Assembly (NCBI GenBank): GCA_009694965.1
Contig: SIBV01000002.1
Span: 1-60,045 of the forward strand
Origin: Candidatus Zambryskiibacteriota bacterium
GTDB taxonomy: Bacteria > Patescibacteriota > Minisyncoccia > Phycocordibacterales > DATDWN01
Direction: 5' to 3'
DNA: 60,045 bases
In this document: one piece after another, positions 3,041 to 55,522 of the stretch
Layout: each line of letters starts with the position of its first letter
Position numbering within the stretch: position 1 is the stretch's first letter
Notes under the pieces: model-generated
What the model saw: the letters and a program-made list of their open reading frames with translations, nothing else
Database searches by the model: none
What the model was told of the DNA's origin: nothing
Translations under genes and position numbers: made by a program

Positions 3041-3077
3041 TAAAAAGAAACCCGCCTCCGTAAGGATTTGGGTTTCT
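3041..3077 (-). terminator. rho-independent terminator of the 3098-3325 gene
   Basis: Minus strand reads gaaaccc-N16-gggtttc followed by ttttt. Confidence 0.6.
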
Positions 3078-3097
3078 CGGTAGAGACAGATTGGTGG

Positions 3098-3325
3098 TTA
3101 TCTGTAAGCCAGAAAAGTACCTTCGTACTTTCCTTGGTTGTATTCGTCAGCACAGGTAACCAAGTTCGGAGATTTGAACTTCTCCGAGCAAGGTGCCTGC
3201 CTCTCTGTCGTCGTTGCTCGTACGAAATTGTGTGTCCAACCGAGTGACGCCTGATACCAAGCGCCTCCGACAATGGTGCACACAAGAAGTGCAAGAATGG
3301 TTGCAAGCTTCTTACCGTTGGGCAT
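3098..3325 (-). CDS. small secreted or membrane-anchored protein (75 aa), GC-rich island A
   Basis: GGAGA SD 10 nt upstream of the ATG at 3325 (MPNGKKLATILALLVCTIVGG...). N-terminal hydrophobic anchor, two Cys in the mature part. Has its own promoter and terminator. Confidence 0.6.
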   Translation of the reverse strand: MPNGKKLATILALLVCTIVGGAWYQASLGWTHNFVRATTTERQAPCSEKFKSPNLVTCADEYNQGKYEGTFLAYR

Positions 3326-3348
3326 AGATATTTGTTCTCCTGTTTTCA

Positions 3349-3377
3349 ATCATATCACGACATAAGTACGATGTCAA
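3349..3377 (-). promoter_or_regulatory. sigma70-type promoter TTGACA-N17-TATGAT
   Basis: Minus strand: TTGACA (3372-3377), 17-nt spacer, TATGAT (3349-3354). The -35 starts 7 nt after the tRNA 3' end. Confidence 0.55.
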
Positions 3378-3383
3378 GTTTTG

Positions 3384-3697
3384 CTCCGCGGGTAGGGATC
3401 GAACCTACGACCAGTCGCTTACATTTGTTCCAAAGTTGCCTTTGGCATGGACTATATCATTATCCCTCTTGCGAGTAGGATATGGGGCGCTTCGCCTACT
3501 CACTTTCGTGACGGCTACTCTCTTTCGAGATAGTCTCTACACCTTCCCATGATTTTACTTGCTGTATTATCTTGGGCTTGGCTCGGGATTGTCCACATGG
3601 GAGTTCCCCGAATTCACCTCATTTTTCATCCTAAATTACTTTAGGAAGCTGCTGTACTTAGCAACAGGCGACTGCTCTACCACTGAGCTACCGCGGA
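3384..3697 (-). tRNA. tRNA-Asn(GUU) interrupted by a group I intron in the anticodon loop
   Basis: Exon 1 (3664-3697): TCCGCGG TA GCTCAGTGGTAGAGC A GTCGC CTGT. Exon 2 (3384-3421): TAA GCGAC TGGTC GTAGGTTCGATCCCTAC CCGCGGA G. Joined, they give a full cloverleaf with a 7-bp acceptor stem, loop CUGUUAA and discriminator G. CCA is not encoded. Confidence 0.85.
3422..3663 (-). ncRNA. group I intron (IC3-like, tRNA-intron type), ~242 nt, no ORF
   Basis: Contains GAATTCGGGGAAC, CCCGAGCCAAGCCC and GGGAAGGTGTAGAGACTATC. These closely resemble the J3/4-P4, P6-P7 and P7-P3 cores of the Azoarcus and cyanobacterial tRNA introns as I recall them. Ends in G (...ACAAATG). Splice sites are ambiguous by 1 nt. 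Confidence 0.75.
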
Positions 3698-3816
3698 ATG
3701 CTGTATTTATTTTAATCAAATAAACACATAAAGATGATACCAAAAACGGTAAAGAATGCAATTATGAGAGCTTTTGTTATACTTACTTATTCAAAGAAAA
3801 ATAATATAATAAAAAT

Positions 3817-4140
3817 ATGGATCTATCAAATAAAAAATGTATACCTTGTGAAGTAGGTGGAGTTGCTCTTAAGCCGGAAGAAGTTGCAATATTTTCTAGT
3901 GATCTTTTAAATTGGGAAGTTTTAGAAAATAAGAAGCTTTTTAGAAAATTTAAATTTAAAGATTTTAAGGAGTCAATAACTTTTGTAAATAAAGTGGCAG
4001 AAATTGCAGAAAAAGAAGGACATCACCCAGATATTGGTATAAATTACAATGAAGTAAATATTGAATTAACTACTCATGCGGTCGGAGGACTTACAGAGAA
4101 TGATTTTATTTTGGTGAGTAAAATAGATAAGATTATTTAA
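3817..4140 (+). CDS. pterin-4-alpha-carbinolamine dehydratase (PCD/DCoH)
   Basis: 107 aa with an EGHHPD motif and typical PCD length and layout. Confidence 0.85.
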   Translation: MDLSNKKCIPCEVGGVALKPEEVAIFSSDLLNWEVLENKKLFRKFKFKDFKESITFVNKVAEIAEKEGHHPDIGINYNEVNIELTTHAVGGLTENDFILVSKIDKII

Positions 4141-6537: not shown

Positions 6538-6550
6538 ATAAAATTTTCTT

Positions 6551-6688
6551 TATCCGCACACCAACTTTAGTATCGTTGCATTGTGTCAAAATATAGATTT
6601 ACTATCTATATCTTTTTATCTTTCATTACTCTATTTATTAATGACAGAAGCAACAGAAGACACAATACTAAAGTTGGTGTGCGGATGT
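6551..6688. repeat. L-family long hairpin element, copy L1 (termini TATCCGCACACC / GGTGTGCGGAT)
   Basis: ~35-nt arms tatccgcacaccaactttagtatcgttgcattgtg / cacaatactaaagttggtgtgcggatg around an AT-rich ~65-nt loop. Confidence 0.8.
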
Positions 6689-6749
6689 ACTTAATTAATA
6701 ACAAGTACATTATACCAAAAGAAAATCAAATAATCACGAGCGGACTGTG

Positions 6750-6889
6750 TATATCCGCACACTAACTTTTACATCATTTTTGTTGTAAATTTAATATAAC
6801 CAGTAAGTTGAGCTTAATTTCCATACTAAAAATATGGATAATTTACTATTAAAAAATAAGACAATGTAAAAGTTAGTGTGCGGATATAC
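6750..6889. repeat. L-family long hairpin element, copy L2
   Basis: Arms atatccgcacactaacttttacat / atgtaaaagttagtgtgcggatat. The termini are conserved and the inner arms differ from L1 but stay complementary. Confidence 0.8.
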
Positions 6890-7528: not shown

Positions 7529-7777
7529 TTAATAATAACTAATGGCAAGTCCAGCAAAAACAAACAAGACTAGTGACACAAACAAGAAAAGGGTCTCAGC
7601 GACTAGTATTCCTGGATTTCTCATGCCATAGGCAGACCAGTGATAAACCAGAACTGAAGTAATAACAACATAAACAATAGAAAATAGAGCCAAAACGACA
7701 ATTAGTCCGGTTGTATTAATAAAAAAAGAAAGAGAGATGCTTGGGAAATTCGGCATTCCAAATGATGGTAATTCCAT
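7529..7777 (-). CDS. small hydrophobic membrane protein (82 aa)
   Basis: ORF with 2-3 TM segments, directly upstream of the PH-domain gene and probably co-transcribed. Confidence 0.5.
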   Translation of the reverse strand: MELPSFGMPNFPSISLSFFINTTGLIVVLALFSIVYVVITSVLVYHWSAYGMRNPGILVAETLFLFVSLVLFVFAGLAISYY

Positions 7778-7781
7778 AGAT

Positions 7782-7922
7782 TTATCCGAACACTAAATCT
7801 GGCATAGTTGCATGGTCTCTATTTTAAATTTCTAATATTAATCAAACTCTCACTAAATAATACTTTTGTGATTGTTTAATTTAGCAACATAGAGACAATG
7901 CCAGAATTAGTGTACGGATTTA
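7782..7922. repeat. L-family long hairpin element, copy L3 (diverged termini ATCCGAACAC / GTGTACGGAT)
   Basis: Arms tttatccgaacactaaatctggcatagttgcatggtctctat / atagagacaatgccagaattagtgtacggatttat. Confidence 0.75.
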
Positions 7923-8727: not shown

Positions 8728-8835
8728 TTGAAGATTTGGATGCAATTCAAGGCGGAATGAGAAAATACGAAAAGCCTTACTCGTTGTAAGGTGACGAGCA
8801 TTTTTGAAATTCCAACGCAGAAGGGCGCCAAATAT
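8728..8835 (+). repeat. family-1 structured element, copy a
   Basis: AATTCAAGGCGG ... GCCTTAC-TCGTT-GTAAGGTGACGAG ... TTCCAACGCAGAAGGGCGCCAAAT. See the family-1 finding. Confidence 0.8.
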
Positions 8836-8847
8836 ACAATTAAACAT

Positions 8848-10635
8848 ATGGAAATAAGAAATATTGCGATAATAGCGCATGTTGACCATGGGAAAACCAC
8901 CCTTACGGATGCTCTCATGAAGCAAACTGGCATGACGACTGGCGACGTGACCATGGACTCAAACGCCCTTGAACAGGAGCGTGGTATTACTATTTATGCA
9001 AAAAACACTTCTGTTTACTACCCTCCAAAAGACTCAGGCAGAATCGTTACAAAAATCAACATAGTGGATACTCCGGGACACTCCGACTTCGGTTCAGAGG
9101 TTGAGCGAGTTTTGCGATCAATCGATACTGTTCTTCTCCTAGTCGATGCTCAGGAAGGACCTATGCCGCAGACTAGATTCGTACTCAAGAAATCACTTGA
9201 ACTAGGACTCAAGCCTATTGTTATCATAAACAAAATAGACAAGCCAGCTGCAAGGCCCGACGAAGTTCATGAGATGGTCTTGGAACTTTTCCTAGAACTA
9301 GGGGCCTCCGAAGAACAACTCGACTTCACTACTGTTTTCGCGATTGGACGAGAAGGAATAGCTAAAATGAAATTGACTGACGAGTCAAAGGACCTTACTC
9401 CCCTCTTAGAAACAATTCTTAGAGAAGTGCCAGCAGCAGGTGGAGACAAAACTAAGCCAGCAAAGATGCAATCCTTTAACCTTGCATACGACAACTTCCT
9501 TGGAAGACTGGCTGTTTGTAGAGTATATGAAGGTGTTATAAAAGTTGGAGACAATGTTTTTGTAAAACAGCATCACGACGAAAATGCTGCCAAAATCGTT
9601 CCTGGAAAACTAACAAAACTTTTTAGCTTTGAAGGCGTGAAGAGAGTGGAGACCAAAGAAGCATCTGCTGGAGATATTGTGATGATCGCAGGTCTTCCAA
9701 CTGTTTATATTGGAGACACTATCTGCCAAGACGAAACGACAGAACTCCTTCCATCTATAAACATCGATGAACCAACAATCTCACTTAACTTCCTTGTAAA
9801 CGACTCTCCTTTTGCTGGACGAGAAGGAAAGTTCGTAACTGGACGACAGATTCGCGACAGACTAGAGAAAGAACTCGAAGTAAACGTCGGCCTAAAAATT
9901 GATTGGAATAACAATGAATACTTTACTGTTTACGGACGCGGAGAACTTCACATTGCTATTCTCCTAGAAAACATGAGACGAGAAGGCTATGAAATGCAGG
10001 TCTCTCAACCACAAGTTATTATCAAAGAAGAAAACGGCGTGAAAACAGAGCCTTTCGAAGAAGTTACTGTGGATGTTCCTGATGCTGTAGCGAGCGCAGT
10101 TATCTCACGTCTCACAGAAAGAAAAGGCCTTCTTATGAATATCAAACAAGGTCACGGATCACAAAGACTTACTTTTGAAATCCCAACTCGAGGACTCTTG
10201 GGTTACAGAGGACAGTTTGTCGTTGATACAAAAGGACTAGGAATTCTATCATCTCGATTTATTGAATTTCGAGACTATGTTGGAGAAGTAAACAAAACAA
10301 CTTACGGATCAATGGTTTCAATGACAGCAGGAAAAGTTTTGGCTTTTGCACTAGACAACCTACAACAAAGAGGAACTCTGTACCTTGATCCAGGAGTTGA
10401 AGTTTACGAAGGAATGGTTATCGGAAACACCTCAAAAGGCGAAGACCTGTATGTGAATCCAACCAAAGGTAAGCAGTTAACAAACATGCGAGCGTCTGGC
10501 TCGGATGGAAGTGTTTACCTAGCAGCAACCTTTAAATTAGATATCGAAAAAGCTATGGAAATTATGTCAGGTGATGAATTTATTGAAATTACTCCAAAGT
10601 CTGTACGCCTCCGAAAGAAAGTTTTGAGGAAATAG
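8848..10635 (+). CDS. typA: translational GTPase TypA/BipA
   Basis: MEIRNIAIIAHVDHGKTTL, DTPGH, NKID, ~595 aa. Start placed at ATG 8848 because the ORF-track GTG at 8791 lies inside the repeat. Confidence 0.93.
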   Translation: MEIRNIAIIAHVDHGKTTLTDALMKQTGMTTGDVTMDSNALEQERGITIYAKNTSVYYPPKDSGRIVTKINIVDTPGHSDFGSEVERVLRSIDTVLLLVDAQEGPMPQTRFVLKKSLELGLKPIVIINKIDKPAARPDEVHEMVLELFLELGASEEQLDFTTVFAIGREGIAKMKLTDESKDLTPLLETILREVPAAGGDKTKPAKMQSFNLAYDNFLGRLAVCRVYEGVIKVGDNVFVKQHHDENAAKIVPGKLTKLFSFEGVKRVETKEASAGDIVMIAGLPTVYIGDTICQDETTELLPSINIDEPTISLNFLVNDSPFAGREGKFVTGRQIRDRLEKELEVNVGLKIDWNNNEYFTVYGRGELHIAILLENMRREGYEMQVSQPQVIIKEENGVKTEPFEEVTVDVPDAVASAVISRLTERKGLLMNIKQGHGSQRLTFEIPTRGLLGYRGQFVVDTKGLGILSSRFIEFRDYVGEVNKTTYGSMVSMTAGKVLAFALDNLQQRGTLYLDPGVEVYEGMVIGNTSKGEDLYVNPTKGKQLTNMRASGSDGSVYLAATFKLDIEKAMEIMSGDEFIEITPKSVRLRKKVLRK

Positions 10636-10636
10636 A

Positions 10637-10732
10637 ATTTTCCTTTCCTTACAGGAACTGTACACTTTTCGCATTTATTAAAATGTTCAAGGTCTTGCGA
10701 AATGATAATATCATTTCTCACCTAGTATCTAA
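10637..10732 (+). repeat. family-2 element, copy 2a (3' of typA)
   Basis: CCTTACAGGAACTGTACAC...GTTCAAGGTCTTGCGAA-[atgataatatcat]-TTCTCAC. Confidence 0.75.
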
Positions 10733-10821: not shown

Positions 10822-11142
10822 TTAGCGACGTCCCCGTCGTGAAAACACTCTGCCAAACTGACGCCGATCGATTTTACGGCTCGGTTTACGACTAACTTGC
10901 GTCATACCTTGCATGACCGCTCGAATGTCCATCTCGTGCTGGTAAAGCTTGAGAAACACCACAAGGCTCAGAAGCATCGCGAGATACTTCAACTGCTTTG
11001 TGAACTTTGGATCTTTTCCAAGATTCCGAAGGAACCTGGAACTCACCCCAACCTTACCGGCAAGTTTCTCCGGTCCCAGGCCCAATTGCTTACTAGTTCG
11101 CTGAACATCCTCTGCGATCACTGACAATCTGACTTCATGCAT
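10822..11142 (-). CDS. small HTH (XRE-like) protein with basic C-terminal tail, GC-rich island B
   Basis: AGGAGA SD 6 nt before the ATG at 11142. LGLGPEKLAGKVGVSSRFLRNL looks like a helix-turn-helix. Sits 26 nt downstream of the truB stop. Confidence 0.55.
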   Translation of the reverse strand: MHEVRLSVIAEDVQRTSKQLGLGPEKLAGKVGVSSRFLRNLGKDPKFTKQLKYLAMLLSLVVFLKLYQHEMDIRAVMQGMTQVSRKPSRKIDRRQFGRVFSRRGRR

Positions 11143-12097: not shown

Positions 12098-13390
12098 ATG
12101 TCTGACAAAACAAAACTATCGACCGAAAGTTACAAAGGTGTCCGCGACTTCTATCCAGAAGACTTGTTTATTCAAAACTATATCTTCAACACCTGGAAAG
12201 AAGTGGTTGAGAAGTTTGGTTATGTAGAATATTCAGCTTCGCTATTAGAATCCGCAGAACTCTATCGAGCAAAATCTGGTGAAGAGATTGTGAATGAACA
12301 AACATACACCTTTACTGACAGGGGTGATAGAGAAGTGACCCTGCGTCCAGAAATGACTCCAACGGTTGCGCGATTAGTAGCCGCCAAAGAAAATGAACTC
12401 GCCTTCCCACTACGCTGGTATTCTATTCCCAACCTTTTCCGATACGAGAAACCTCAGAGAGGTAGGCTTCGTGAACATTGGCAATTAAATGTTGATCTTT
12501 TTGGAGTGGAAAATAGGTCTGCTGATACGGAAATTATAACTGTTGGATACGAAATTATGAAAAAGTTTGGAGCGAAGGATACAGACTTCTCTATAAAAAT
12601 AAATAACAGAAAGATAGTAAATGCTTTGTACGGAAAGTTCGGATTAAATCCAGAAAATTCCAACAAGGCTTCAAAAGTAATCGATAAAAAGGCCAAAATG
12701 TCTCCAGATGGTTTCGAAACTGCCTTGGAAGAACTCCTTAACGACAAAACAAAAGATTTTATCTCACTACTTGAATCAGATGAGAAACTACTTGAATACA
12801 TTGGCATAGAGAATCCAGATGTAAAAGATCTAGTTGCAACTATTGACGAACTTTTGAGTGCAGGAATAGAAAATATAGTTTTCGATCCTACACTTATGAG
12901 AGGCTTCGACTACTATACTGGTATGGTCTTTGAAGTTTTCGATTTAAGCCCTGAAAATAACAGATCGCTATTTGGTGGTGGAAGATACGACGACCTCACT
13001 TCCCTATTTGGCGAAAAGAAAATCCCAGCTGTTGGGTTCGGCGAAGGAGATGTAACTATGAAGGACTTCTTGGAAACGCACGAGCTACTTCCTAAATACA
13101 AACCAAGCACGGATTTATATATTTGCTTGTTGGGGGATGAATTCCGAAGTAAAGGGAACGAAATAGCAAAAAAGCTAAGAGAGAAAGGGGTGAACGTCGC
13201 CGTAGACTTAAGCCAGAAAAAACTCGGTGAACAAATAAAAATTGCCGACAGGCAAAAAATTCCTTTTATTATCTGCGTTGGAGAAAATGAAATAAACTCC
13301 GGCATATATCCACTCAAAAATATGCTAACTGGTGTCGAAAGCAAGATAAAAATCGAGGAAGTGTCTGCAATTATTCGTAACCATTCGTAG
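12098..13390 (+). CDS. hisS: histidyl-tRNA synthetase
   Basis: KGVRDFYPED, LRPEMTP, YEKPQRGRLREHWQ, GGGRYD, 430 aa from ATG 12098. Confidence 0.92.
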   Translation: MSDKTKLSTESYKGVRDFYPEDLFIQNYIFNTWKEVVEKFGYVEYSASLLESAELYRAKSGEEIVNEQTYTFTDRGDREVTLRPEMTPTVARLVAAKENELAFPLRWYSIPNLFRYEKPQRGRLREHWQLNVDLFGVENRSADTEIITVGYEIMKKFGAKDTDFSIKINNRKIVNALYGKFGLNPENSNKASKVIDKKAKMSPDGFETALEELLNDKTKDFISLLESDEKLLEYIGIENPDVKDLVATIDELLSAGIENIVFDPTLMRGFDYYTGMVFEVFDLSPENNRSLFGGGRYDDLTSLFGEKKIPAVGFGEGDVTMKDFLETHELLPKYKPSTDLYICLLGDEFRSKGNEIAKKLREKGVNVAVDLSQKKLGEQIKIADRQKIPFIICVGENEINSGIYPLKNMLTGVESKIKIEEVSAIIRNHS

Positions 13391-13423
13391 ATTTGCATCA
13401 TTCGTATATTTGTATATTTATTT

Positions 13424-14040: not shown

Positions 14041-14125
14041 TCCGTTCCATTACATGGCCAGTATACCTTTCACATCTGATTACAGACGTTCAAGGTCTTG
14101 CGAAGTGATAACATCACTTCTCACC
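14041..14125 (+). repeat. family-2 element, copy 2b (3' of the exonuclease gene)
   Basis: ...GTATACCTTTCACATC...GTTCAAGGTCTTGCGAA-[gtgataacatcac]-TTCTCAC. Confidence 0.75.
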
Positions 14126-18799: not shown

Positions 18800-18819
18800 A
18801 CATATAGAATACCTTATTT

Positions 18820-18964
18820 TTATCCGCACACCAATTCTAGCATCGTTGTTTTTTTGTGTCACAACTACTCACTAATCACTTAGATTAAACTTAAATTTAC
18901 TACAGTATATTGTAGTAAAATAATCGCAACAACGACACTATGCTAGGTTTAGTGTTTGGATTAA
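18820..18964. repeat. L-family long hairpin element, copy L4 (right arm degenerate)
   Basis: tttatccgcacaccaattctagcatcgttg... / ...caacgacactatgctaggtttagtgtttggatta. Confidence 0.7.
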
Positions 18965-18975
18965 GACAAAAAAAG

Positions 18976-19038
18976 CCCAGATAGTAGAGCCTACCGCAGT
19001 ACTAGAGATTACTCAGTACACGGTTCACTCACTACTGG
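18976..19038 (+). repeat. H-family hairpin, copy H1
   Basis: cccagatagtagagcctaccgcagtactagagattactcagtacacggttcactcactactgg, with the central ~30 nt nearly identical to 50717-50778. Confidence 0.75.
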
Positions 19039-19090
19039 ACACGCCTCGTGCGGTGGAGTCCAACATAGACTCCACTCACACAAAACTTGC

Positions 19091-19246
19091 TCAAGCCTCT
19101 GGCTCATCTAGAGGCTTCGGTGTTTCGTCGATCGGCTTCCCGTCTGGCCCAATTTCCTCAAGCAGTCTGTAGCATTCCAGGCAGTGATTGTAATTGCCTA
19201 GCATGCCGATATTTACACCACCACAATACGGACAATGTTTCTCCAT
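19091..19246 (-). CDS. 51-aa zinc-ribbon protein (CxxC...CxxC) with Pro/Glu-rich tail, GC-rich island C; not in the ORF track
   Basis: GGGGGTGA immediately upstream of the ATG at 19246. MEKHCPYCGGVNIGMLGNYNHCLECYRLLEEIGPDGKPIDETPKPLDEPEA, TGA stop at 19091. Confidence 0.5.
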   Translation of the reverse strand: MEKHCPYCGGVNIGMLGNYNHCLECYRLLEEIGPDGKPIDETPKPLDEPEA

Positions 19247-19321
19247 TCACCCCCCAGAGTTAACTTCCCACTAAATAGTATCACAATGTTTAAAATTTTG
19301 GTGAGAAAAAACTCCGGATAG

Positions 19322-19347
19322 TAGAGCGGGATGAATCCCGCTCTACA
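19322..19347 (-). terminator. hairpin downstream of the phosphatase gene (H-family-like left flank)
   Basis: Perfect 11-bp stem gtagagcggga tgaa tcccgctctac. The T-run on the minus strand begins only 9 nt after the stem. Confidence 0.45.
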
Positions 19348-19390
19348 CAAACGAAGCATTAGCCCAAAACGGGTAGAAGAACTGAGTTCC

Positions 19391-19843
19391 CTACCACTTG
19401 GTCTTGAGTTCTGTAGCGATTTCTCGCATGTGGAACTCGACGAGCGCCGCGCAAGCCGTGTACGCAGCTGGGCCGAGCTGCCACGGATTGGGAACACCGT
19501 CCCCCTTCGCGTTAACTACTCGCACCCGAAAGCGCATTACCGGGTACGCGTTGCGGATTTGCTCAGCCTGCTCTTCACCTGCACACAGAATGATGTCGAA
19601 CAGTTCGACTGGCCCGACTGACCCAATGTGACGGCTCTTGTGTCCATCCACATGCAGCCCACGCAGTGCAAGTTCCTTGGCCGAGTCCACGTTTATCTCG
19701 TTGCCTTCGGAGCCTTTGTTTGTGCCCGCACTTTCGACGCAGACATCTCCCATTCCGAGTTTATCCAACTCGTTCTGCAGGATGGCCTGCATCATGGGCG
19801 AACGACAGGTGTTGCCGAAGCAAACACACAATACCTTTTTCAC
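19391..19843 (-). CDS. low-molecular-weight protein-tyrosine phosphatase / ArsC-like (LMWPc) family, GC-rich island C
   Basis: VLCVCFGNTCRSPM = CX5R(S/T) P-loop. GGAGGA SD 8 nt upstream of the GTG at 19843. The longer ATG-initiated ORF overlaps its own promoter. Confidence 0.8.
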   Translation of the reverse strand: MKKVLCVCFGNTCRSPMMQAILQNELDKLGMGDVCVESAGTNKGSEGNEINVDSAKELALRGLHVDGHKSRHIGSVGPVELFDIILCAGEEQAEQIRNAYPVMRFRVRVVNAKGDGVPNPWQLGPAAYTACAALVEFHMREIATELKTKW

Positions 19844-19864
19844 GGTTCGAATCCTCCGTTTTTT

Positions 19865-19894
19865 ACTATAGCACGAAAAATGCCTATTTGTCAA
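19865..19894 (-). promoter_or_regulatory. sigma70-type promoter TTGACA-N18-TATAGT
   Basis: Minus strand: TTGACA (19889-19894) and TATAGT (19865-19870). Confidence 0.55.
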
Positions 19895-35583: not shown

Positions 35584-35604
35584 ATTACCCAACCTCGCAC
35601 AAAA

Positions 35605-36190: not shown

Positions 36191-36206
36191 TTGTGATAAA
36201 CATGCA

Positions 36207-36521
36207 CTAGTTAGGGCTAATGCCCTGAGACTTGTGAAGTTTCTGGCAACCTTTGCAACGAATGTACATGAAGTATTCATCGAGTCGATCTTCCTCAATT
36301 TCTTCATTACAGTCGTAGCAATAACCGTACTCACCACGCGCAAGTCGCTGTTGGGCGAGCTGGAGGTAAAACAGAAGCCCGTGCTTCATGTGCCCCCAAT
36401 ACGACTGGGGATGATCGAGTTCGGGCAGCGACGGTTTTTGTGCTTCTGCTTGTGCTAACTTGCACTCCAGCATTTCTCGGAGCACAGTTTGCCGAAGATT
36501 AAAACTCTGTGTCATAGTCAT
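36207..36521 (-). CDS. DksA/TraR-family C4 zinc-finger protein, GC-rich island F
   Basis: YGYCYDCNEEIEEDRL...RCKGCQ (CxxC-N17-CxxC). GGAGA SD 8 nt upstream of the ATG. Confidence 0.75.
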   Translation of the reverse strand: MTMTQSFNLRQTVLREMLECKLAQAEAQKPSLPELDHPQSYWGHMKHGLLFYLQLAQQRLARGEYGYCYDCNEEIEEDRLDEYFMYIRCKGCQKLHKSQGISPN

Positions 36522-39333: not shown

Positions 39334-40044
39334 TTACCTTGATTTAATCTTCCAAGCTTCTATTTTTTTATGATTTCCTGACAACAATATTTTAGGTACT
39401 CTGTACTTCTTTTTTTTGTATTCAAATACTTCAGGCCGAGTATAAACATCATGACTCGAAATTCTAGACTCTTCAAGTGAATCGAAGTTCCCTAAAACGC
39501 CTTCTATTTGTCTAGCAACACAATCTAGTACAACCATCGCAGGCAATTCTCCGCCAGTTAGAACAAATGGTCCAACAGAAATATCTTCCATTTTGAAAAT
39601 CTTTTTTACTCTAGCGTCGATGCCTTCATACCTTCCGGATACCAAGATAATATCAGTAAATTTTTTGGCAGCATTCTTAGCATAAGTTGTATCAAACTGT
39701 TTTCCGGACGGAGAAAAGAAAACTATTTTAGTAGAAGTTGGAATTAAGAATTTAGAATTTAGTTTTTTAGAATTCTCTTTTTTATTCCTCATTCTTAATT
39801 CTCTCTTCTTGATTCTATCCAAAGCTTTTTCAATCGCTTTAACTGTAGGCAGTGCTTGAATTACCATCCCTGGTCCTCCGGCATAAGGTTTTTGATCTAC
39901 TCTTTTCCATTTATCATCGCTGTAGTCCCGAGGATTATAAAAGGAAACAGAAATTTTCTTGTCTTCTATCGCTCGTGAAATAATAGACTCATTTAGATAT
40001 GAGTCGAAGGCCCCCGGAAATAAAGTAATGATGTGAAATCTCAT
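39334..40044 (-). CDS. trmD: tRNA (guanine37-N1)-methyltransferase TrmD
   Basis: MRFHIITLFPGAF, GGPGMV, GRYEGIDAR, LTGGELPAM. Confidence 0.93.
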   Translation of the reverse strand: MRFHIITLFPGAFDSYLNESIISRAIEDKKISVSFYNPRDYSDDKWKRVDQKPYAGGPGMVIQALPTVKAIEKALDRIKKRELRMRNKKENSKKLNSKFLIPTSTKIVFFSPSGKQFDTTYAKNAAKKFTDIILVSGRYEGIDARVKKIFKMEDISVGPFVLTGGELPAMVVLDCVARQIEGVLGNFDSLEESRISSHDVYTRPEVFEYKKKKYRVPKILLSGNHKKIEAWKIKSR

Positions 40045-40061
40045 GTCGAATTTATAATATA

Positions 40062-40150
40062 GCGTATTTCTTTGTTGCAGTTCAAAAAATATTCCTCACC
40101 TTACAACTAAGTAAGGCTCGTCTTATTTTTCTCTTGCGCCTCGAACTACA
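40062..40150 (-). repeat. family-1 structured element, copy g (the only minus-oriented copy)
   Basis: Reverse complement reads AGTTCGAGGCGCAAGAGAAAAATAAGACGAG-CCTTAC-TTAGTT-GTAAGG-TGAGGAATATTTTTTGAACTGCAACAAAGAAATACGC. Confidence 0.75.
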
Positions 40151-40210: not shown

Positions 40211-40234
40211 AAAAGGGCGCTTAAGCGCCCTTTT
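40211..40234. terminator. bidirectional hairpin terminator
   Basis: aaaagggcgc ttaa gcgccctttt. Confidence 0.7.
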
Positions 40235-40244
40235 AACCATTCGT

Positions 40245-40421
40245 CTAGAACACTTCCGTGTGAAGTGTTGGAGGTGCTGGTTCCGTCTTGCGCGGAGTCT
40301 CAACCTGAGATGCAGTCTCCCAGTCGCTCAGGAACCTGTGGCACTTTGGGCATTTTTGGTTCCCACTCCACATCCAGCTTTCTCCACAATTGCTACAGAC
40401 TATGACTGGTGGTATCGGCAT
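40245..40421 (-). CDS. 58-aa zinc-ribbon protein (CxxC...CxxC) with Pro-rich tail, GC-rich island G
   Basis: GGGAGGTG SD 4 nt before the ATG at 40421. MPIPPVIVCSNCGESWMWSGNQKCPKCHRF... Confidence 0.6.
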   Translation of the reverse strand: MPIPPVIVCSNCGESWMWSGNQKCPKCHRFLSDWETASQVETPRKTEPAPPTLHTEVF

Positions 40422-40468
40422 GTGCACCTCCCTTTCCATATAAAATTATATCACGAAAATTTTTGTAT

Positions 40469-40496
40469 AAAAAAAGAGGGGTTTGCTGTCCCCCTC
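40469..40496 (-). terminator. rho-independent terminator of the 40518-40922 gene
   Basis: Minus strand: gagggg gacagcaaa cccctc ttttttt. Confidence 0.6.
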
Positions 40497-40517
40497 CCAA
40501 ACCGAACATCTAGACCG

Positions 40518-40922
40518 TCAGGCCGGCGCAGGAACGGCACCACGATGGATGTGGCCATCCGTCGGCACCTTGCGCCAGTCACCGATTTCCACGACCTTCC
40601 GTGACATCGGCAAACGAACGATCTTCTTCTGGGCACCACCGCCATCGTGTCCAGTCGGCGGATCGCCACCACCGCCCTTCTCGAACGCCCGCTCGAAGCG
40701 GAGGCTTTCGCGAAGGGAGATGGCCACAAAAAGGACCATCATCGTCACGGCCGTCATGGCAACGCCGAGACCGAAATCCAACCAGCTCATCGGATGAGTC
40801 TGGTTGTAGGCGATGTATTGTGCCGCCAGTGCCGGTGCCGCCTTCCATGCCATGTAACCCTTCAGGGAAGACAGCAGAACCACCACGAGGAGCGCAAGCG
40901 CCCTTTTCACACGATTGCTCAT
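40518..40922 (-). CDS. two-TM membrane protein with Gly/Pro-rich cytoplasmic tail (134 aa), GC-rich island G
   Basis: AGGAGG SD 5 nt before the ATG at 40922. Two hydrophobic helices. Several overlapping ORF-track calls here are high-GC artefacts. Confidence 0.6.
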   Translation of the reverse strand: MSNRVKRALALLVVVLLSSLKGYMAWKAAPALAAQYIAYNQTHPMSWLDFGLGVAMTAVTMMVLFVAISLRESLRFERAFEKGGGGDPPTGHDGGGAQKKIVRLPMSRKVVEIGDWRKVPTDGHIHRGAVPAPA

Positions 40923-41039
40923 CGGAACCTCCTAACCTAGCCATAACATATATATCAGAAAATGCAAGTCAAACAAAAAACACCCGTTTGGGAGTCTTCT
41001 GTTTATTTATCTAAATTTTTAAAACTATAATTTTGGATG

Positions 41040-44282: not shown

Positions 44283-44636
44283 CTAGAAGGTGTCATACTT
44301 GCTTGTGGGCAGGAAGTGGATTCTCTGCTCAATCGTGCTGAAGAAATCATGCCAGGAAATAAATCCCTGATCTGTCTTAACCACCAACTCTGGCTTGAAG
44401 CCAAAATTTAGTTCGATTGTTTTTTCCAAATCCAGAAGGATAGGAAGTGACAAAGTTTCGTGATCTTCGAAATAGACGATTTCCTGTCCACTGAGACTGA
44501 GAAACCTCATTATGAGTATATTTTCCTTCTTGATGAAGGGAAATATACTGTTTTTTTTATTGAGAGACACTTCCCTCACAGTTTCTGCTAGAACACCTTT
44601 CGTCGTCTCCCACCGAACACCCATAACCATAGTCAT
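44283..44636 (-). CDS. hypothetical protein (~115 aa), moderately GC-enriched unit J
   Basis: ORF with its own TTGACA-N17-TACAAT promoter. AAAGGA precedes three alternative ATGs, so the start is uncertain (44636 or 44630). Confidence 0.5.
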   Translation of the reverse strand: MTMVMGVRWETTKGVLAETVREVSLNKKNSIFPFIKKENILIMRFLSLSGQEIVYFEDHETLSLPILLDLEKTIELNFGFKPELVVKTDQGFISWHDFFSTIEQRIHFLPTSKYDTF

Positions 44637-44678
44637 GTCCTTTCGAAGGAAGACTGGGCAATCCAGATTCCACTAAAT

Positions 44679-44707
44679 ATTGTATGTCGCCATAAATTTA
44701 TTGTCAA
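44679..44707 (-). promoter_or_regulatory. sigma70-type promoter TTGACA-N17-TACAAT
   Basis: Minus strand: TTGACA (44702-44707), 17-nt spacer, TACAAT (44679-44684). Confidence 0.55.
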
Positions 44708-47174: not shown

Positions 47175-47203
47175 TTGACAAATACTCTTAAGGGGTGTAT
47201 AAT
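47175..47203 (+). promoter_or_regulatory. perfect consensus sigma70 promoter TTGACA-N17-TATAAT
   Basis: TTGACA 47175-47180, 17-nt spacer, TATAAT 47198-47203. Drives island H. Confidence 0.65.
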
Positions 47204-47269
47204 TTAATATGGAAGGTTTTGGCTGTGCCAGAACCAATAAAGTGAGCTGTGCTCACAGGAGAGAGTGAC

Positions 47270-47605
47270 ATGCAACAAATCGTAAAGTTCGCAGGAATTA
47301 CTGCTGTTCAGGTAGCTTCCCTTGACGCAATTCTCAAGGAGGACTTCGTCAGTGCTCATGTTAGCAAATTGCGAGTTCGTAGCGTCGGTGATAGCTACAC
47401 TTACGAACTCTCCGTGCACATGGGTGATACCCAAACCGAAGTCCAATATTTCTACTTTCACAGAAGTTCCCGAATTCACACCAGGTTGACTTCTCGAAGT
47501 GTCATGATTGCTATCTACGACGCCCTTCAGGTTTTTCCGGAACAGGCCGTAGATGAATATACCGAGTGGGTCGAGATCCAGAACGCTCCAAGTAACTCGT
47601 ATTAG
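47270..47605 (+). CDS. hypothetical 111-aa protein, GC-rich island H
   Basis: AGGAGA SD 7 nt before ATG 47270. Promoter and terminator present. The antisense ORF 47204-47611 is rejected. Confidence 0.6.
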   Translation: MQQIVKFAGITAVQVASLDAILKEDFVSAHVSKLRVRSVGDSYTYELSVHMGDTQTEVQYFYFHRSSRIHTRLTSRSVMIAIYDALQVFPEQAVDEYTEWVEIQNAPSNSY

Positions 47606-47666
47606 CGGCAAATCTGCTTCTTACTCTTGTTACTGAAGAGAGATCCTCGTCATAAGGTCAATAAAT

Positions 47667-47697
47667 CAGGCGCTGGAGAAATCCGGCGCCTTTTCTT
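47667..47697 (+). terminator. rho-independent terminator of island H
   Basis: aggcgc tggagaaatcc ggcgcc ttttctt. Confidence 0.55.
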
Positions 47698-47761: not shown

Positions 47762-47881
47762 GCTCTGAGGATTTTTGGTTTAGTTCAAGGCGGAATGAGA
47801 AAAGGCGAGGAGCCTTACTCGTTGTAAGGTGACGAGGATTTTTGAGATTCCAACGCTGAAATCGGACAAAAAGACCAGAGC
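47762..47881 (+). repeat. family-1 structured element, copy b (most complete)
   Basis: gctctgaggatttttgg TTTAGTTCAAGGCGGAATGAGAAAAGGCGAGGAG-CCTTAC-TCGTT-GTAAGG-TGACGAGGATTTTTGAGATTCCAACGCTGAAATCGG acaaaaagaccagagc. Confidence 0.85.
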
Positions 47882-48570: not shown

Positions 48571-48640
48571 AAAATCAATATATACGAATATGCGAATTAT
48601 GCAAACCTACGAATGGCAACGAATAAATGCCTTTTGAATT

Positions 48641-49528
48641 TTATTTTTTCAAAAGTATATTAATGGCCTTTGTCACTAAGGGCAGGATATCATTATAAAA
48701 GTTAAGGTCAAGTATATCCGCAAGTTTGAACCACTTTGCATCATCCAAGCCTCCCTTTATTTCTCTTACAATATCTTTGTACTCTGACTCTGCCAAGAAG
48801 AAAACTACATGTTTTTTTATCTTTCCTCTTTCTGGATGATAAGCAATGTACTCGTTCTCTCCAAGCTTTTCCTTGAGTGTAACATCGAGACCCAACTCCT
48901 CTTTTATTCCTCGAACAGTTCCCGCCTCAACTTCTTCACCAGGTTGCATCTTTCCTTTGGACAATGTCCATCGGCCAAACACGTCATGTATCAAGGCTAG
49001 ATAAACTTCATCGCCGTCCTTTGCGTAAACAACAGCTCCCCCAAGGTGTTCAGTTGGCACTGGACCGACTATCTTCTTTTTATCCTTTGTAGTTTCATCC
49101 TTTCCTGGCTCACCCAGTTCTTTGTAAACTGCACCCAATACTCCGTTCACGAACTTACTAGATGTTTCTCCGCCGAAGGCCTTTGATAATTCAATCGCCT
49201 CATTGATAGCTACTTTTGGTGGAACTTGTGTTCTATCAGAAAAAAGAAGTTCGTATAATCCGATTCTCAATATGTTTCTATCGATAATGCTTATCTTATC
49301 TATTGGCCAATCTGGAGCCGCTTTCTCTATAATCAAATCTATATCTTTTTGTTTTTCCAAAACTCCATTCAAGAGAGTTTCCATAAAAGAAAAATCCCCG
49401 TGGCCTGGTGCAAATTCTTCAGCATTACGCCTAAAAATCGCATCAGCCTCGGGGCTTTTCTTAGAACCAAAATCCCACTCAAAAAGGGATTGTAGAACTA
49501 TTGATCTGGAAAGGTGCCTGTTTGCCAT
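48641..49528 (-). CDS. nusB: NusB antitermination factor fused to a C-terminal NUDIX hydrolase domain
   Basis: N-terminus RHLSRSIVLQSLFEWDF...AINEAIELSKAFG (NusB). C-terminus GKMQPGEEVEAGTVRGIKEELGL (NUDIX box). Start at ATG 49528. Confidence 0.85.
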   Translation of the reverse strand: MANRHLSRSIVLQSLFEWDFGSKKSPEADAIFRRNAEEFAPGHGDFSFMETLLNGVLEKQKDIDLIIEKAAPDWPIDKISIIDRNILRIGLYELLFSDRTQVPPKVAINEAIELSKAFGGETSSKFVNGVLGAVYKELGEPGKDETTKDKKKIVGPVPTEHLGGAVVYAKDGDEVYLALIHDVFGRWTLSKGKMQPGEEVEAGTVRGIKEELGLDVTLKEKLGENEYIAYHPERGKIKKHVVFFLAESEYKDIVREIKGGLDDAKWFKLADILDLNFYNDILPLVTKAINILLKK

Positions 49529-49676
49529 AATGGAATGCTTCTCACTTAGTATAACAAACGATAATTTAGTTATCAATGAAAATATAGCTGGAATATCAAC
49601 ACTCCTTAATTTTCAATTTAAAATTTAGAATTTAAAAATTAATTTTAAATTCTAAATTAAAAATTATAAATTGTTA

Positions 49677-50716: not shown

Positions 50717-50778
50717 CCCAGTAGCAGAGCAAACCGCAGTACTAGAGTAAACTCAGTACACGGTTCGCTCGCTACGGG
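50717..50778 (+). repeat. H-family hairpin, copy H2 (immediately upstream of dnaE)
   Basis: cccagtagcagagcaaaccgcagtactagagtaaactcagtacacggttcgctcgctacggg. Confidence 0.75.
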
Positions 50779-50792
50779 ACAGGCCCACCAAC

Positions 50793-53700: not shown

Positions 53701-54038
53701 TGTATATTTCTGGGCATCCACTCGATTCATTCAAAGATAAACTGGAAGGAAAAGAAACTAATATTAAAAAAATAAAAGAAACTGCCAAGGAAAAAACTCC
53801 GGTAGTAATAGCAGGAATTGTTGAAGAGATAAGACCTGTTATGACTAAAAAGGGTGAGAAAATGATTTTCCTGAAAGTCGCAGATCTTACTGACTCGATA
53901 GATATGGTGGCTTTTCCAAAAATATTTGAAGAGTTTCAAGGAATTCTGGTTCCAGAGAGCTGTATTGTGATTAAGGGAACCATGTCACTGCGAAACGGAG
54001 AAAAATCTATTTTGATAGATAAGGTGAAAAGTATGTAG
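50793..54038 (+). CDS. dnaE: DNA polymerase III alpha subunit (DnaE type, N-terminal PHP domain)
   Basis: FTHLHTHSHYSLL PHP start, PDIDMDF catalytic motif, 1081 aa. Confidence 0.96.
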   Translation: MSRFTHLHTHSHYSLLNALPKIDALVDIAKKNDMKALALTDNCNLYGAIEFYIKCLKKEIKPIIGIDSYVAYRSRKDKESIDKERYRLVLLAKNDKGYKNLIQLVTLAHMEGFYYKPRIDKELLEKYSEGLIAIAPSFSSDIVKSLQLENIDQAMERLAFYKKVFGETDGEPNFFLEVTHHPEIKGHEENMKKLVDFAKKTNTPIVAAHDVYYLAKEDRIARETMIAIQSQNDDKIEDGEDDFSFITQKQAEKYFKNRPEALENVEKIVERCNLEISIGKWSLPNYIVESGLSYDDELRRITEEGIAKRSLTKTPEISERIEYELKIIKDKGYAPYFLVVWDLLNYAHQHGILTTIRGSVAGSLVTYLSNITNVNPIEYLLPFERFLNPERPSAPDIDMDFADNRRDEMIEYTKEKYGRDKVAQIGTFGTMAARGAVRDVTRALGFPYGVGDTIAKLIPMGAQGFPMTLERALKEEPELKKMYDAEPDVKKIIDMAKKIEGCTRHISVHAAGVVIAPTPLINYVPLQFDTKGDNKIITQYDMNDVGEDGVGLLKFDFLGIRNLSILADAVKLTEKLEGIKIDIENIPVDDKKTFEMLARGETEGLFQLNGDGMTRALKELKPTVIHDINVMVALYRPGPMDNIQEYIARKHGKKPVTYLHPKMKSFLDKTYGVLVYQDDLLYTAIEVAGYNWGEVDKFRKAVGKKIREEMAKQHIRFVDGCQSHGGMTKQKAEELWKLFEPFQGYGFNKAHAASYGKVAYQTAYMKANFPAIYMSAVLTAESGDTDTIAQIIAECKRMNIPVLPPDVNGSFEGFTVVKSNNEVRSTSDEKNPSNIVHRALNLDSIRFGLTTIKNFGEGVGTSIINERKKNGPFKSLTDFLKRIKDKNLNKKSMESLIKTGAMDAFGDRNLLLQNLEHILAFNKEERSKGSDQDSLFGASLNVQANDIKLEPAPAASQADKLMWEKELLGLYISGHPLDSFKDKLEGKETNIKKIKETAKEKTPVVIAGIVEEIRPVMTKKGEKMIFLKVADLTDSIDMVAFPKIFEEFQGILVPESCIVIKGTMSLRNGEKSILIDKVKSM

Positions 54039-54093
54039 CGTCATCACACTATCATTTTTTAAAACGTGTATAAATCGCTGTTGCGATTTTACT

Positions 54094-54168
54094 ATTCCTT
54101 ACAGGAACTGTACACCTTTCACATCTTAGTAAAGATGCTCAAGGTCTTGCGAAGCTGCGCTTCTCACT
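54094..54168 (+). repeat. family-2 element, copy 2c (3' of dnaE)
   Basis: CCTTACAGGAACTGTACACCTTTCACATC...GCTCAAGGTCTTGCGAA-[gctgcgc]-TTCTCAC. Confidence 0.75.
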
Positions 54169-54240
54169 CGTTAATCAAGAAAACAGTCTCCTAAATACAT
54201 AACCTTCTCGCAAACTCGCTCCCCACCACACGGGCACTAA

Positions 54241-54296
54241 CGTGCCTCTCGAGTACTTCAAATTTCTAATCGCTTCGCTCAAGAAATTTAGGTCGC
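54241..54296 (-). repeat. X element, copy 2 (inverted relative to 14284-14335)
   Basis: Reverse complement gcgacctaaatttcttgagcgaagcgattagaaatttgaagtactcgagaggcacg matches copy 1 at most positions. Confidence 0.7.
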
Positions 54297-54472
54297 TCAC
54301 ACAATGCTTCAGGTTTATTTTATCTTCGTCGTTGTTTTCTAATTTCCTGCGCAATGTTTTAAAAAATGATAGTTTGATTCAAGTGTGAAGATTTTGTAAA
54401 TTTGAAAGTTTATATAAAACAAAAGAGTCTCACGCAAACAGAGAATGAAACTCCCTTGCCTAAGACTCGTTA

Positions 54473-55474
54473 TTATCGGCAGACTCCACTGCCAGAATCG
54501 GAGAAAGAACCAGTAGCGGGTAGGAATCGGAACTCGTATGTTCTAGCCCCTAGCGCCACCACGGTTACTCCCCATGATGTGTTATTGAAAGCGACGCTAT
54601 TCTGTCGACGACGAAATAGTGGTCGTAACTCGGCTCCACCTGTTCCACTCACGATTTCTAAAACACCCTTCTTGTGGTCCAGTTCTTCGTTCGGACCTTG
54701 CGGCAGAAACCTTTCGTAGTTGTGATCGTGGCCCACAACAAGAAGTTCCACGTGGTGTTTGTAGAGGATAGCGAAGTCTTCCGTGACAGCACCAATGTTG
54801 CCCCCAATACCCGAAGAAAATCTTGGGTAGTGGAAGTAGACCAGAGTGCACGGTCGTGCGGAATTCGCGAGAAGGTCTTGTTCGAGCCATTGGAGGTAGG
54901 CGGTTTTCGCTCTACCCACAAGATTACTGTTTCCAGAAATCACGTGCCAGTAATCCCCTGGCGGATTCCAACTGTAGTAACCCAAGCCAGACAGCCCAGC
55001 CGCAGTTCCAAAGTAAGAGAAATAGCCGGATGCGCCTATGGTCTCATACTCATGGTTTCCTGGTGTTGGTCGAGTGAAAGCTTTCCAACGACCATAAACA
55101 GGATCGTAACAGTTGCGAAACTGTATCGCACTTCCTTGAAAGTAAACGATGTCTCCAATCGGTAGAAACATTCGACTCACTCCATCAAGTCCGAGACGAC
55201 CCAACAGTTCTCCAACATACTCATGGCCCTTTTTACCATTGAGTATGTTGTTATGACCTGGTTCACAGTTCGCAATATCCCCTGCGAAGTAATAAGTCAC
55301 CTGCGGCTGGAACATTGCGGGAGCAGGAACCGCTGTTTCTGTTGGCGAAACCGTAGTCACTACCACATCTGGTGTTGGATTTTCTGAGGGAGAACTAGGA
55401 GTCTTAGGATGGCTGCAATTCGTCGCAACCATTTGAAGGGTCACGACGAATATGGCGAACCATTTTTGTGCCAT
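54473..55474 (-). CDS. calcineurin-like metallophosphoesterase, probable lipoprotein, GC-rich island I
   Basis: Lipobox-like MVATNC after a signal peptide. GDI, GDIVY, GNHEY and GHDHNYER motifs. GAGAGGT SD 6 nt upstream of the ATG. Confidence 0.85.
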   Translation of the reverse strand: MAQKWFAIFVVTLQMVATNCSHPKTPSSPSENPTPDVVVTTVSPTETAVPAPAMFQPQVTYYFAGDIANCEPGHNNILNGKKGHEYVGELLGRLGLDGVSRMFLPIGDIVYFQGSAIQFRNCYDPVYGRWKAFTRPTPGNHEYETIGASGYFSYFGTAAGLSGLGYYSWNPPGDYWHVISGNSNLVGRAKTAYLQWLEQDLLANSARPCTLVYFHYPRFSSGIGGNIGAVTEDFAILYKHHVELLVVGHDHNYERFLPQGPNEELDHKKGVLEIVSGTGGAELRPLFRRRQNSVAFNNTSWGVTVVALGARTYEFRFLPATGSFSDSGSGVCR

Positions 55475-55494
55475 CTTAAAACCTCTCTGCCCTC

Positions 55495-55522
55495 ACAATA
55501 TGCTTAATATATAAAGTGTCAA
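55495..55522 (-). promoter_or_regulatory. sigma70-type promoter TTGACA-N16-TATTGT
   Basis: Minus strand: TTGACA (55517-55522) and TATTGT (55495-55500). Confidence 0.5.

Follow-up and report, generated by a model that had tools for sequence, protein, structure and literature searches.

The 60,045-bp stretch analysed here, called the window below (contig SIBV01000002.1 of a Candidatus Zambryskiibacteriota bacterium), has a mean GC content of 38.9% (0.389), and its TrmD showed 78–81% identity to that of bins labelled Candidatus Zambryskibacteria, Parcubacteria or Paceibacterota. From position 283 to 59745 it carries a backbone of approximately 42 AT-rich housekeeping and conserved genes devoid of Shine-Dalgarno (SD) sequences. 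These include typA, a pif1-like helicase gene, dnaG, rpoC, rpoB, lexA, capA and trmD, as well as a KhpA-type KH gene, rpsP, rnr, smc, rnc, a nusB-NUDIX fusion, rpmF, rnhB, dnaE, hisS and gyrB, and the order dnaE-rnhB-rpmF-nusB-rnc-smc-rnr-rpsP-KH-trmD-pif1-capA-...-lexA-rpoB is kept in 80 species-level relatives. Set into the backbone are short units, islands A to J, which a first-pass annotation had described as GC-rich, SD-bearing 'moron-like' transcription units. Its central claim, that two compositions and two modes of translation initiation coexist in one chromosome, was confirmed: GC, GC at third codon positions (GC3) and SD energy separate islands and backbone almost completely.

The anti-SD scores (dG) given below are duplex energies of positions −20 to −1 with ACCUCCUUA, the canonical 16S rRNA tail, which may not be that of the host. 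Island A (3041–3377, minus strand) has the promoter TTGACA-N17-TATGAT with a TG extension (3377 to 3349), which begins 4 nt past the 3' end of an intron-bearing tRNA-Asn gene, and the SD AGGAGA (dG −7.4). Its open reading frame (ORF) A1 (3098–3325, minus strand) encodes 75 amino acids (aa) with a hydrophobic segment at the N-terminus, and a hairpin with a T-run follows at approximately 3041–3076. The neighbouring tRNA-Asn(GUU)-like gene (3382–3697, minus strand) has its anticodon loop split by a group I intron of approximately 275 nt (RF00028, 66.7 bits); ARAGORN misses the unspliced tRNA, and trial splicing yields a 73-nt tRNA-Asn. Island B (10822–11142, minus strand) contains ORF B1 of 106 aa with the SD AAGGAGA (dG −9.1), and the only match of B1 was weak and helix-turn-helix/antitoxin-like. 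Island C (19091–19894, minus strand) consists of two separate promoter-SD-ORF units. The first has the promoter TTGACA-N18-TATAGT with TG (19894 to 19865), the SD GGAGGA, the gene C1 (19391–19843, minus strand) for a 150-aa low-molecular-weight phosphotyrosine phosphatase (LMW-PTP; LMWPc, 1.6e-18) and a hairpin terminator at about 19310–19350. The second, on the same strand, has the extended −10 element TGTGATACTAT, the SD GGGGGTGA and the gene C2 (19091–19246, minus strand) for a 51-aa CxxC..CxxC zinc ribbon.

Island D (30637–31012, plus strand) carries TTGACT-N17-TATCGT (30637–30665), the SD GGAGA (dG −6.4), the 74-aa orphan D1 (30694–30918, plus strand) and a terminator at 30984–31007. Two putative units make up island E (33582–34375, plus strand): E1 (33686–33916, plus strand; 76 aa, TTG start, SD GGAGGA) with a terminator at 33936–33956, and E2 (34038–34238, plus strand; 66 aa, SD GGAGGA) with terminators at 34282–34309 and 34348–34375. 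The coding status of E is the least certain, since it was not listed by an external gene caller and no homologues were found. Island F (35116–36521, minus strand) has three units, each with a GGAG(G) SD, namely F1 (36207–36521, minus strand; 104 aa), a DksA/TraR-type zinc finger with a terminator from 36180 to 36152, F2 (35605–35991, minus strand; 128 aa) with a terminator from 35583 to 35555, and F3 (35116–35496, minus strand; 126 aa). F2 and F3 (together 35116–35991, minus strand) are tandem paralogues with 31% identity (E=3e-9) and form a small family of approximately 125-aa proteins.

Island G (40211–40972, minus strand) lies between the KH-domain gene and trmD and again has two units, with SD energies of dG −10.9 and −12.6. 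The first comprises the promoter TTGACT-N16-TATGTT (40972 to 40945), the SD AGGAGGT, the gene G1 (40518–40922, minus strand) for a 134-aa membrane protein with a GC of 0.60, and a terminator from 40494 to 40477; the second, also on the minus strand, comprises the extended −10 element TGATATAAT, the SD GGGAGGTG, the gene G2 (40245–40421, minus strand) for a 58-aa zinc ribbon and a bidirectional hairpin at 40211–40236. The zinc-ribbon mini-proteins C2 and G2 share the CxxC...CxxC pattern and an 'ETP(K/R)' tail that is acidic and rich in proline, and both come from the second unit of their two-unit islands; mini-ORFs resembling them were seen in relatives L055 and L060, in the latter directly upstream of trmD. 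The marginal unit J (44283–44707, minus strand) has the promoter TTGACA-N17-TACAAT (44707 to 44679) and the ORF J1 (44283–44636, minus strand; 117 aa), whose GC is only about 0.41, with a GC3 of 0.51 and a weak SD (dG −5.3). Island H (47175–47697, plus strand) has a perfect TTGACA-N17-TATAAT promoter (47175–47203), the SD AGGAGA, the true orphan H1 (47270–47605, plus strand; 111 aa) and a terminator at 47668–47691. In island I (54425–55522, minus strand), TTGACA-N16-TATTGT (55522 to 55495) and the weak SD GAGAGGT (dG −7.2) precede I1 (54473–55474, minus strand), a 333-aa secreted-type calcineurin-like metallophosphoesterase.

The GC content by unit was 0.46 for A, 0.50 for B, 0.51 for C, 0.48 for D and for E, 0.46 for F, 0.55 for G, 0.455 for H, 0.49 for I and 0.405 for J, and that of the flanks 0.32–0.43. 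A sliding GC profile peaked at each listed unit, and the described GC excess was clear for all of them except J. The annotation had already called J a weaker unit: its promoter held up, whereas its GC was marginal and its SD weak. Per gene, the mean GC of the 15 island ORFs was 0.50 (minimum 0.41) versus 0.37 for 41 backbone genes (maximum 0.418; p~1e-8), and the respective GC3 values were 0.54 and 0.32. Four-fold degenerate sites were nearly uniform in the islands (A.23, C.23, G.25, T.29) and dominated by A and T in the backbone (A.37, C.12, G.14, T.37). The island proteins contained more Cys (3.6x), Trp, Pro and His, and less Lys, Ile and Asp.

The claim that island starts carry GGAGG-type SD sequences and backbone starts do not was borne out. 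The mean anti-SD energy was −8.9 kcal/mol for 15 island starts and −0.5 kcal/mol for 42 backbone starts (Mann-Whitney p=7e-9); the island starts were picked partly for carrying an SD, which inflates the contrast somewhat, yet within each ORF they are the earliest plausible ones. When the backbone genes were given the best start within their first 60 codons, their mean was still only −3.9 (p=2e-7). Energies of −6 or lower were found at 93% of island starts versus 11% of random 20-mers within the islands. Internal operon genes of the backbone, such as KH after rpsP, were also without SD.

The backbone start regions had 26% GC and a minimum free energy of −3.8 kcal/mol over positions −30 to +30, and were thus nearly unstructured. 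Over 60 nt, the minimum free energy was −8.8 kcal/mol for island start regions versus −8.2 kcal/mol for backbone gene interiors. Since the GC-rich start regions fold approximately like backbone interiors, the structure-free route of initiation without SD would be closed to the island genes. The SD would then be a necessary companion of GC-rich sequence, and this requires a ribosome that reads it.

Among 322 backbone starts, −10-like hexamers peaked 6–7 nt before the ATG: TANNNT was found at 11% versus a baseline of approximately 4.5%, and when one mismatch to TATAAT was allowed, the values were 12.7% and approximately 2.5%. The share of relatives with such a box was 45% for trmD, 71% for lexA, 67% for rnhB and 62% for dnaE, and KH, which follows rpsP, was without it. 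Within the window the signal was modest (8/27 genes versus 4/27 at a control offset). The position of the box suggests that some backbone genes have leaderless mRNAs. In addition, a repeated motif, ATTCGTATAT/ATTCGCATATTCGTATA, was observed directly before several backbone starts (13371–13421, 26947–26997, and upstream of rnc at ~48571–48600 and of rpoC at ~26875–26900), and it may be a shared promoter/operator or a leaderless-start context.

The islands had also been described as self-sufficient units with near-consensus promoters and GC hairpin terminators, and this description agreed with the results, a promoter, an SD and a terminator being found for the units. The total number of sigma-70 promoter-consensus matches in the window was no higher than in shuffles, so that information lies only in the best-scoring ones: of the five that match at 11/12 positions or more, four lie at island starts (12/12 for H; 11/12 for J, A and C), and the fifth lies upstream of rpoB. 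The 11/12 promoters of A and C have the TG extension, and the promoter of island I matched at 10/12. Between 30 and 50 kb there were 36 terminator-like sites versus 14.3+/-3.8 expected, and the strongest of them, the longest GC-rich hairpins, close D, E, F and H.

We also observed several families of dispersed repeats near the islands. A 65–100-nt intergenic family is terminator-like, with a conserved hairpin, CTCGTTGTAAGGTGACGAG, and a T-run behind it. Its copies (8735–8854, 33096–33215, 33499–33591, 47773–47875 and 57538–57602, with an inverted copy at 40038–40107) occur in both orientations and often adjoin islands E, G and H, and a further copy lies at an island border of relative L028 (5250–5320). 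Several intergenic repeats of the D6 family (18982–19045 and 50722–50785), the D7/D12/D13 family (10635–10722, 14050–14125 and 54085–54154) and the 'TATCCGCACAC' family (6544–6889, 7776–7810 and 18814–18848) adjoin islands B, C and I.

The pattern was followed in the 80 species-level genomes and in the fetched loci L001–L174. Of 208 backbone starts in the relatives, placed by alignment, none scored −8 or lower (mean −0.6), and the same was true of 85 backbone starts from an independent metagenome set. The gaps between the same core genes ranged from a few bp to several kb, and 300-bp GC peaks in them reached +0.29 over the local backbone, whereas backbone genes never exceeded +0.12. A first count, of 249 'SD-led ORFs' (best of four starts, dG ≤ −8), was rejected, as chance matches in GC-rich DNA had inflated it and a null from the same gaps gave nearly the same frequency (12% versus 13%). 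It was replaced by a test, controlled for local composition, on the longest non-overlapping gap ORFs of at least 60 aa (n=465), in which the true upstream window was compared with offset windows upstream of and inside the ORF. With a GC excess above 0.08, 63% of the ORFs had an SD (dG ≤ −8) versus 24% and 19% at the offset controls (p~1e-11); with an excess of 0.04–0.08, the values were 44% versus 16% (p≤5e-4), and with an excess of 0 or less, no significant difference was seen (13% versus 11–12%). In the gap ORFs, the SD core most often lay 4–8 nt from the start codon. GC excess and SD are thus coupled throughout the Zambryskibacteria-like clade and not in one genome only.

Presence and absence were scored in the equivalent gaps of other close pairs, the nearest genome or metagenome to the window having a TrmD identity of 81%. 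In pairs with approximately 80–85% core nucleotide identity, the alignments broke exactly at GC-rich inserts held by one genome: an insert of 1063 bp (GC 0.46) in L028 faces 0 bp in L065, L005 carries one of 1190 bp (GC 0.53) and L024 none, and in another pair 702 bp of GC 0.51 stand against 100 bp. This clean presence or absence of GC-rich inserts in the same core-gene intervals is the outcome which the first-pass annotation had named as favouring acquisition.

The contents of the gaps diverge rapidly. Only 26% of the GC-rich gap ORFs had a homologue in another of the 80 species, with a median identity of 32%, as compared with 39–53% of the AT-rich gap ORFs at approximately 60% identity. Gap families, built blind to SD, fell into two classes, one AT-rich and SD-less with 50–84% identity, the other GC-rich (+0.09 to +0.19) and SD-led in 50–100% of its members, with 31–42% identity. 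The GC-rich families were nearly always confined to one gap, and the mean identity of their members was 38% versus 77% for the flanking core proteins. In one pair the flanking proteins were 93.5% identical and the island proteins only 37%. Island identity correlated weakly with backbone identity (rho 0.30, p=0.07).

ORFs with a position-specific SD had a GC of about 0.47 (approximately 0.42–0.52) whatever the host (slope −0.06 for hosts below 0.45 GC), whereas ORFs without SD followed the GC of the host backbone with a slope of 0.78. Such independence is expected of a pool that has not equilibrated with the host. The GC excess was 0.128 in orphan and 0.100 in shared SD-led ORFs, while the SD did not decay (−11.0 for shared ORFs versus −10.5 for orphans); this trend fits slow drift towards host composition combined with selection on the SD.

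We consider it fairly probable that the islands are autonomous accessory micro-cassettes, drawn from a shared, non-equilibrated gene pool and lodged in core-gene hotspots of Zambryskibacteria-like Patescibacteria, members of the candidate phyla radiation (CPR). The conserved syntenic backbone would initiate translation without SD, at starts in very AT-rich, unstructured leaders, and some of its mRNAs are probably leaderless. Into the gaps between core genes would be set cassettes of 0.3–1.4 kb, usually with a single gene, built as a near-consensus sigma-70 promoter (often with an extended −10), an SD of the canonical GGAGG type 4–8 nt from the start codon, a small ORF and an intrinsic terminator. 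Their predicted products are zinc ribbons, membrane proteins, a DksA/TraR-like protein and a few phosphatases. The pool would be lineage-restricted and of fast turnover (~47–50% GC, unbiased third positions), with members gained, lost and replaced at fixed hotspots, and GC-rich copies would be expressed and retained only where their SD is strong. Insertion possibly occurs by illegitimate recombination of DNA taken up from outside, no recombinase or repeats having been seen. From these results we infer an external, horizontal origin of the cassettes and a functional SD. Horizontal transfer and genomic islands have been reported for Patescibacteria (PMC12455944). The acquisition proposed in the annotation is the best-supported explanation, but only in part: presence/absence and the independence of island GC from the host argue for it, whereas no donor was found and some islands are old.

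Retention of the SD in diverged orthologues, its specific position and the avoidance of SD words in the backbone suggest that this lineage has kept a ribosome able to read SD sequences. Within backbone coding sequences, AGGAG occurred at an observed/expected ratio of 0.78 (z=−8) and AAGGAG at 0.76, against 1.04–1.20 for control words; the synonymous-shuffle control behind these ratios breaks dinucleotides at codon boundaries, and this counts, with several other points, against acquired cassettes with a working SD. The anti-SD motif was found in only 48% of Parcubacteria 16S sequences (PMC9297842), and neither the window nor any of the 174 fetched loci showed an rRNA signature, a 16S rRNA or rpsU. 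The island borders are free of integrase and transposase genes, att-like repeats and target duplications, the longest direct or inverted repeats there being chance 8–12-mers; the annotation had likewise reported no visible integrase or transposase, and none was present among the ORFs of the window. Islands E, J and D are taken as coding only from their ORFs and signals. Homologue searches with the island proteins, most of which are orphans, gave no nameable donor lineage. H1 had no homologue among 5.8 billion protein clusters, and F2 had only ~30 distant representatives among 1.84 billion proteins.

Nor did a phage origin find support. The nine main islands, concatenated, gave no DNA match to 50,697 phage records, scans of IMG/VR with F1, C1 and G1 gave no relatives (a plasmid collection was not searched), and the only match in PHROGs was a weak one of F1 to the DksA-like phrog_54 (1.6e-6). 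Since there is no phage link, 'moron' is only an analogy. Homologues of I1 with ~45% identity come from Gemmatimonadota and other non-CPR bacteria, soil bacteria among them, its nearest relatives being on CPR-like contigs, and the relatives of C1 are unnamed metagenome proteins encoded by GC-rich genes in SD-poor backbones of lower GC. Two C1 homologues (L092, 5001–5396; L093, 2074–2511) have a GC of 0.58–0.60 in SD-poor contigs of 0.39–0.44, and both adjoin PEP-utilising-enzyme genes.

The remaining points against an import model also favour a different explanation, namely that the islands are a native class of GC-rich, SD-led genes which are vertically inherited, lineage-specific and very fast-evolving, perhaps with host-interaction or regulatory roles. 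Their composition would then reflect selection for structured or stable mRNAs together with SD-dependent, possibly conditional, translation, or GC-biased gene conversion at sites prone to recombination, and their presence/absence would reflect loss in a streamlining genome and not gain. Homologues, where they exist, lie in the same gap in 83% of cases. Families 11, 22, 25 and 26 each occupy one gap in 4–6 species and keep both the SD and the extra GC, and a relative carries, at the same hisS|dnaE site, a homologue of I1 with 57% identity that is still GC-rich. Given families of 31–42% identity in 4–6 species, and I1 at the same site, not all islands are recent imports; some cassettes are old, yet have not drifted to host composition, which a pure recent-import model fails to predict. 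LMW-PTP homologues that are GC-rich (0.58–0.60) in other low-GC, SD-poor backbones, the lack of mobility genes, repeats and donors in our searches, and an SD that does not decay as gene age rises point in the same direction. However, AT-biased mutation should leave weakly constrained, fast-evolving genes AT-richer and not GC-richer. The indifference of island GC to host GC and the slightly higher GC of orphans fit import followed by slow drift, and flanks of 93.5% identity around island proteins of 37%, or around an empty site, indicate replacement or gain and not clock-like divergence, with which the weak correlation of island and backbone identities also disagrees. We regard a native class as rather unlikely.

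In the nusB gene of the window (48641–49576, minus strand), NusB is fused to a NUDIX domain (Pfam NusB and NUDIX in the external gene calls), and in relatives the rnhB|rpmF gap holds a NUDIX-like gene of its own, GC-rich and SD-led, which constitutes family 25.

It is very unlikely that the signals of the islands are relics, that is, that the 16S rRNA lacks the anti-SD and the islands are recent captures of foreign DNA, for example scavenged host DNA, with unused signals and many unexpressed ORFs. The low frequency of the anti-SD among Parcubacteria (PMC9297842), a backbone totally without SD, the many orphan ORFs, and the failure of the external gene caller to call E and J would all be accounted for. 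On the other hand, the SD is position-specific (4–8 nt) and is kept at 31–42% protein identity, a divergence that would have randomised neutral upstream sequence, SD-like words are avoided within backbone genes, and host-derived DNA should show close database homologues, which most island proteins do not have.

The annotation had also raised the possibility of chimeric assembly. The region 36072–57534, containing F1, G, J, H, I and their junctions, was found at 99.8–100% identity in Logan assemblies from several sequencing runs, the gene order in ENA contigs was the same as in the window, and A1, B1 and C1 were present on independent contigs as well. Because the stretch is reproduced in independent assemblies, it is not chimeric. 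The external gene calls on the ENA contig included no gene in E or J and placed other starts for C1, G1 and H1. As for structured RNA, an Rfam search of the window returned a single family, that of the group I intron outside the islands, and none inside any island, so the noncoding RNA candidate was dropped. Thus, although chimeras can occur in genome bins and RNA genes are often the GC-rich patches of AT-rich genomes, as the intron within the tRNA gene illustrates here, the idea that the islands are chimeric joins, contaminating reads or GC-rich structured noncoding RNAs rather than genes has next to no probability and is already largely refuted, since the junctions between 36 and 57.5 kb are identical across Logan runs, a like architecture occurs in more than 100 other genomes, and island ORFs have Pfam domains or belong to conserved protein families.

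The acquired-cassette reading could be extended further: the ribosome would keep a working anti-SD, and SD initiation would be a dedicated channel for the hypervariable, compositionally distinct accessory pool, switchable as a block by the state of the ribosome. We regard this extension as quite doubtful. Its switching is likened to that in Bacteroidia, where bS21-free ribosomes act on rpsU. In Flavobacterium johnsoniae and other Bacteroidia, the ribosomes are 'SD-blind' and SD-led genes are rare, the SD-led gene being rpsU (bS21), which is autoregulated via sequestration of the anti-SD (PMC7797042, PMC9976891, PMC13000453). The present genome resembles that system in being nearly free of SD, with A/T-rich unstructured starts, a minority of strong SDs and two modes of initiation, but its SD-led genes are variable accessory cassettes of foreign-like composition and not a native rpsU. 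If the extension were true, it would provide a built-in two-tier translation of core and accessory genes and could account for the persistence of the anti-SD in lineages without SD.

Several other known systems offer partial parallels. Core-gene hotspots, described in bacterial pangenome studies as flexible genomic islets of accessory turnover between conserved core genes, share with the islands the bracketing of differing genes of atypical composition by the same core pair, presence/absence in close relatives, and many orphans. The units here differ from them in being tiny (1–3 genes) and without integrases, repeats or tRNA-linked att sites, except for the position of A beside a tRNA gene, and to our knowledge no difference in initiation mode between core and accessory genes has been described for such hotspots. 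Phage morons are likewise autonomous promoter-gene-terminator units that lie between conserved genes and differ from them in base composition; here, however, the neighbours are cellular housekeeping genes syntenic in 80 genomes, with no prophage and no phage matches. A classical genomic island would share the atypical composition and the presence/absence in equivalent gaps of relatives, but not the lack of integrase/transposase genes and att repeats, and only island A abuts a tRNA gene. Unlike integron cassettes, the units are scattered and have their own promoters, with no integrase and no shared cassette-end repeat.

As regards translation initiation, the 'group C' genomes of GeneMarkS-2 (for example Actinobacteria and Deinococcus) mix leaderless and SD-led initiation, with SDs on native internal operon genes. 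The window is similar in that some first genes have a −10 box 6–7 nt ahead of the ATG and SD-led genes occur elsewhere, but its internal backbone genes are SD-less, and SDs are restricted to accessory units that are GC-rich and hold a single gene. For Parcubacteria, reduced ribosomes and a 16S rRNA that often lacks the anti-SD motif have been described (Tsurumaki et al. 2022, PMC9297842); these organisms belong to the same superphylum and have an SD-less core genome, but an SD-bearing gene class is not described there. In the literature we found no description of base composition coupled with initiation mode.

In this ultra-small CPR clade, core and accessory genes can thus be told apart by composition and initiation mode, which travel together. 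A gene finder trained on a core that is AT-rich and without SD will probably miss or mis-call such accessory genes, and composition-based bin cleaning may flag the islands as contamination. The pattern makes it testable whether Parcubacteria that dropped SD still read it, why the anti-SD is retained, and from where reduced symbionts obtain genes. The zinc ribbons, small membrane proteins, phosphatases and DksA/TraR-like proteins would be a natural place to seek functions in host interaction or defence.

Finally, a DUF2283/DUF4258-like pair (56944–57252 and a small ORF upstream at ~56850–56940) lies between hisS and a PspC-domain gene and is a possible toxin-antitoxin module. Its GC is very low (0.29), a deviation opposite to that of the islands.

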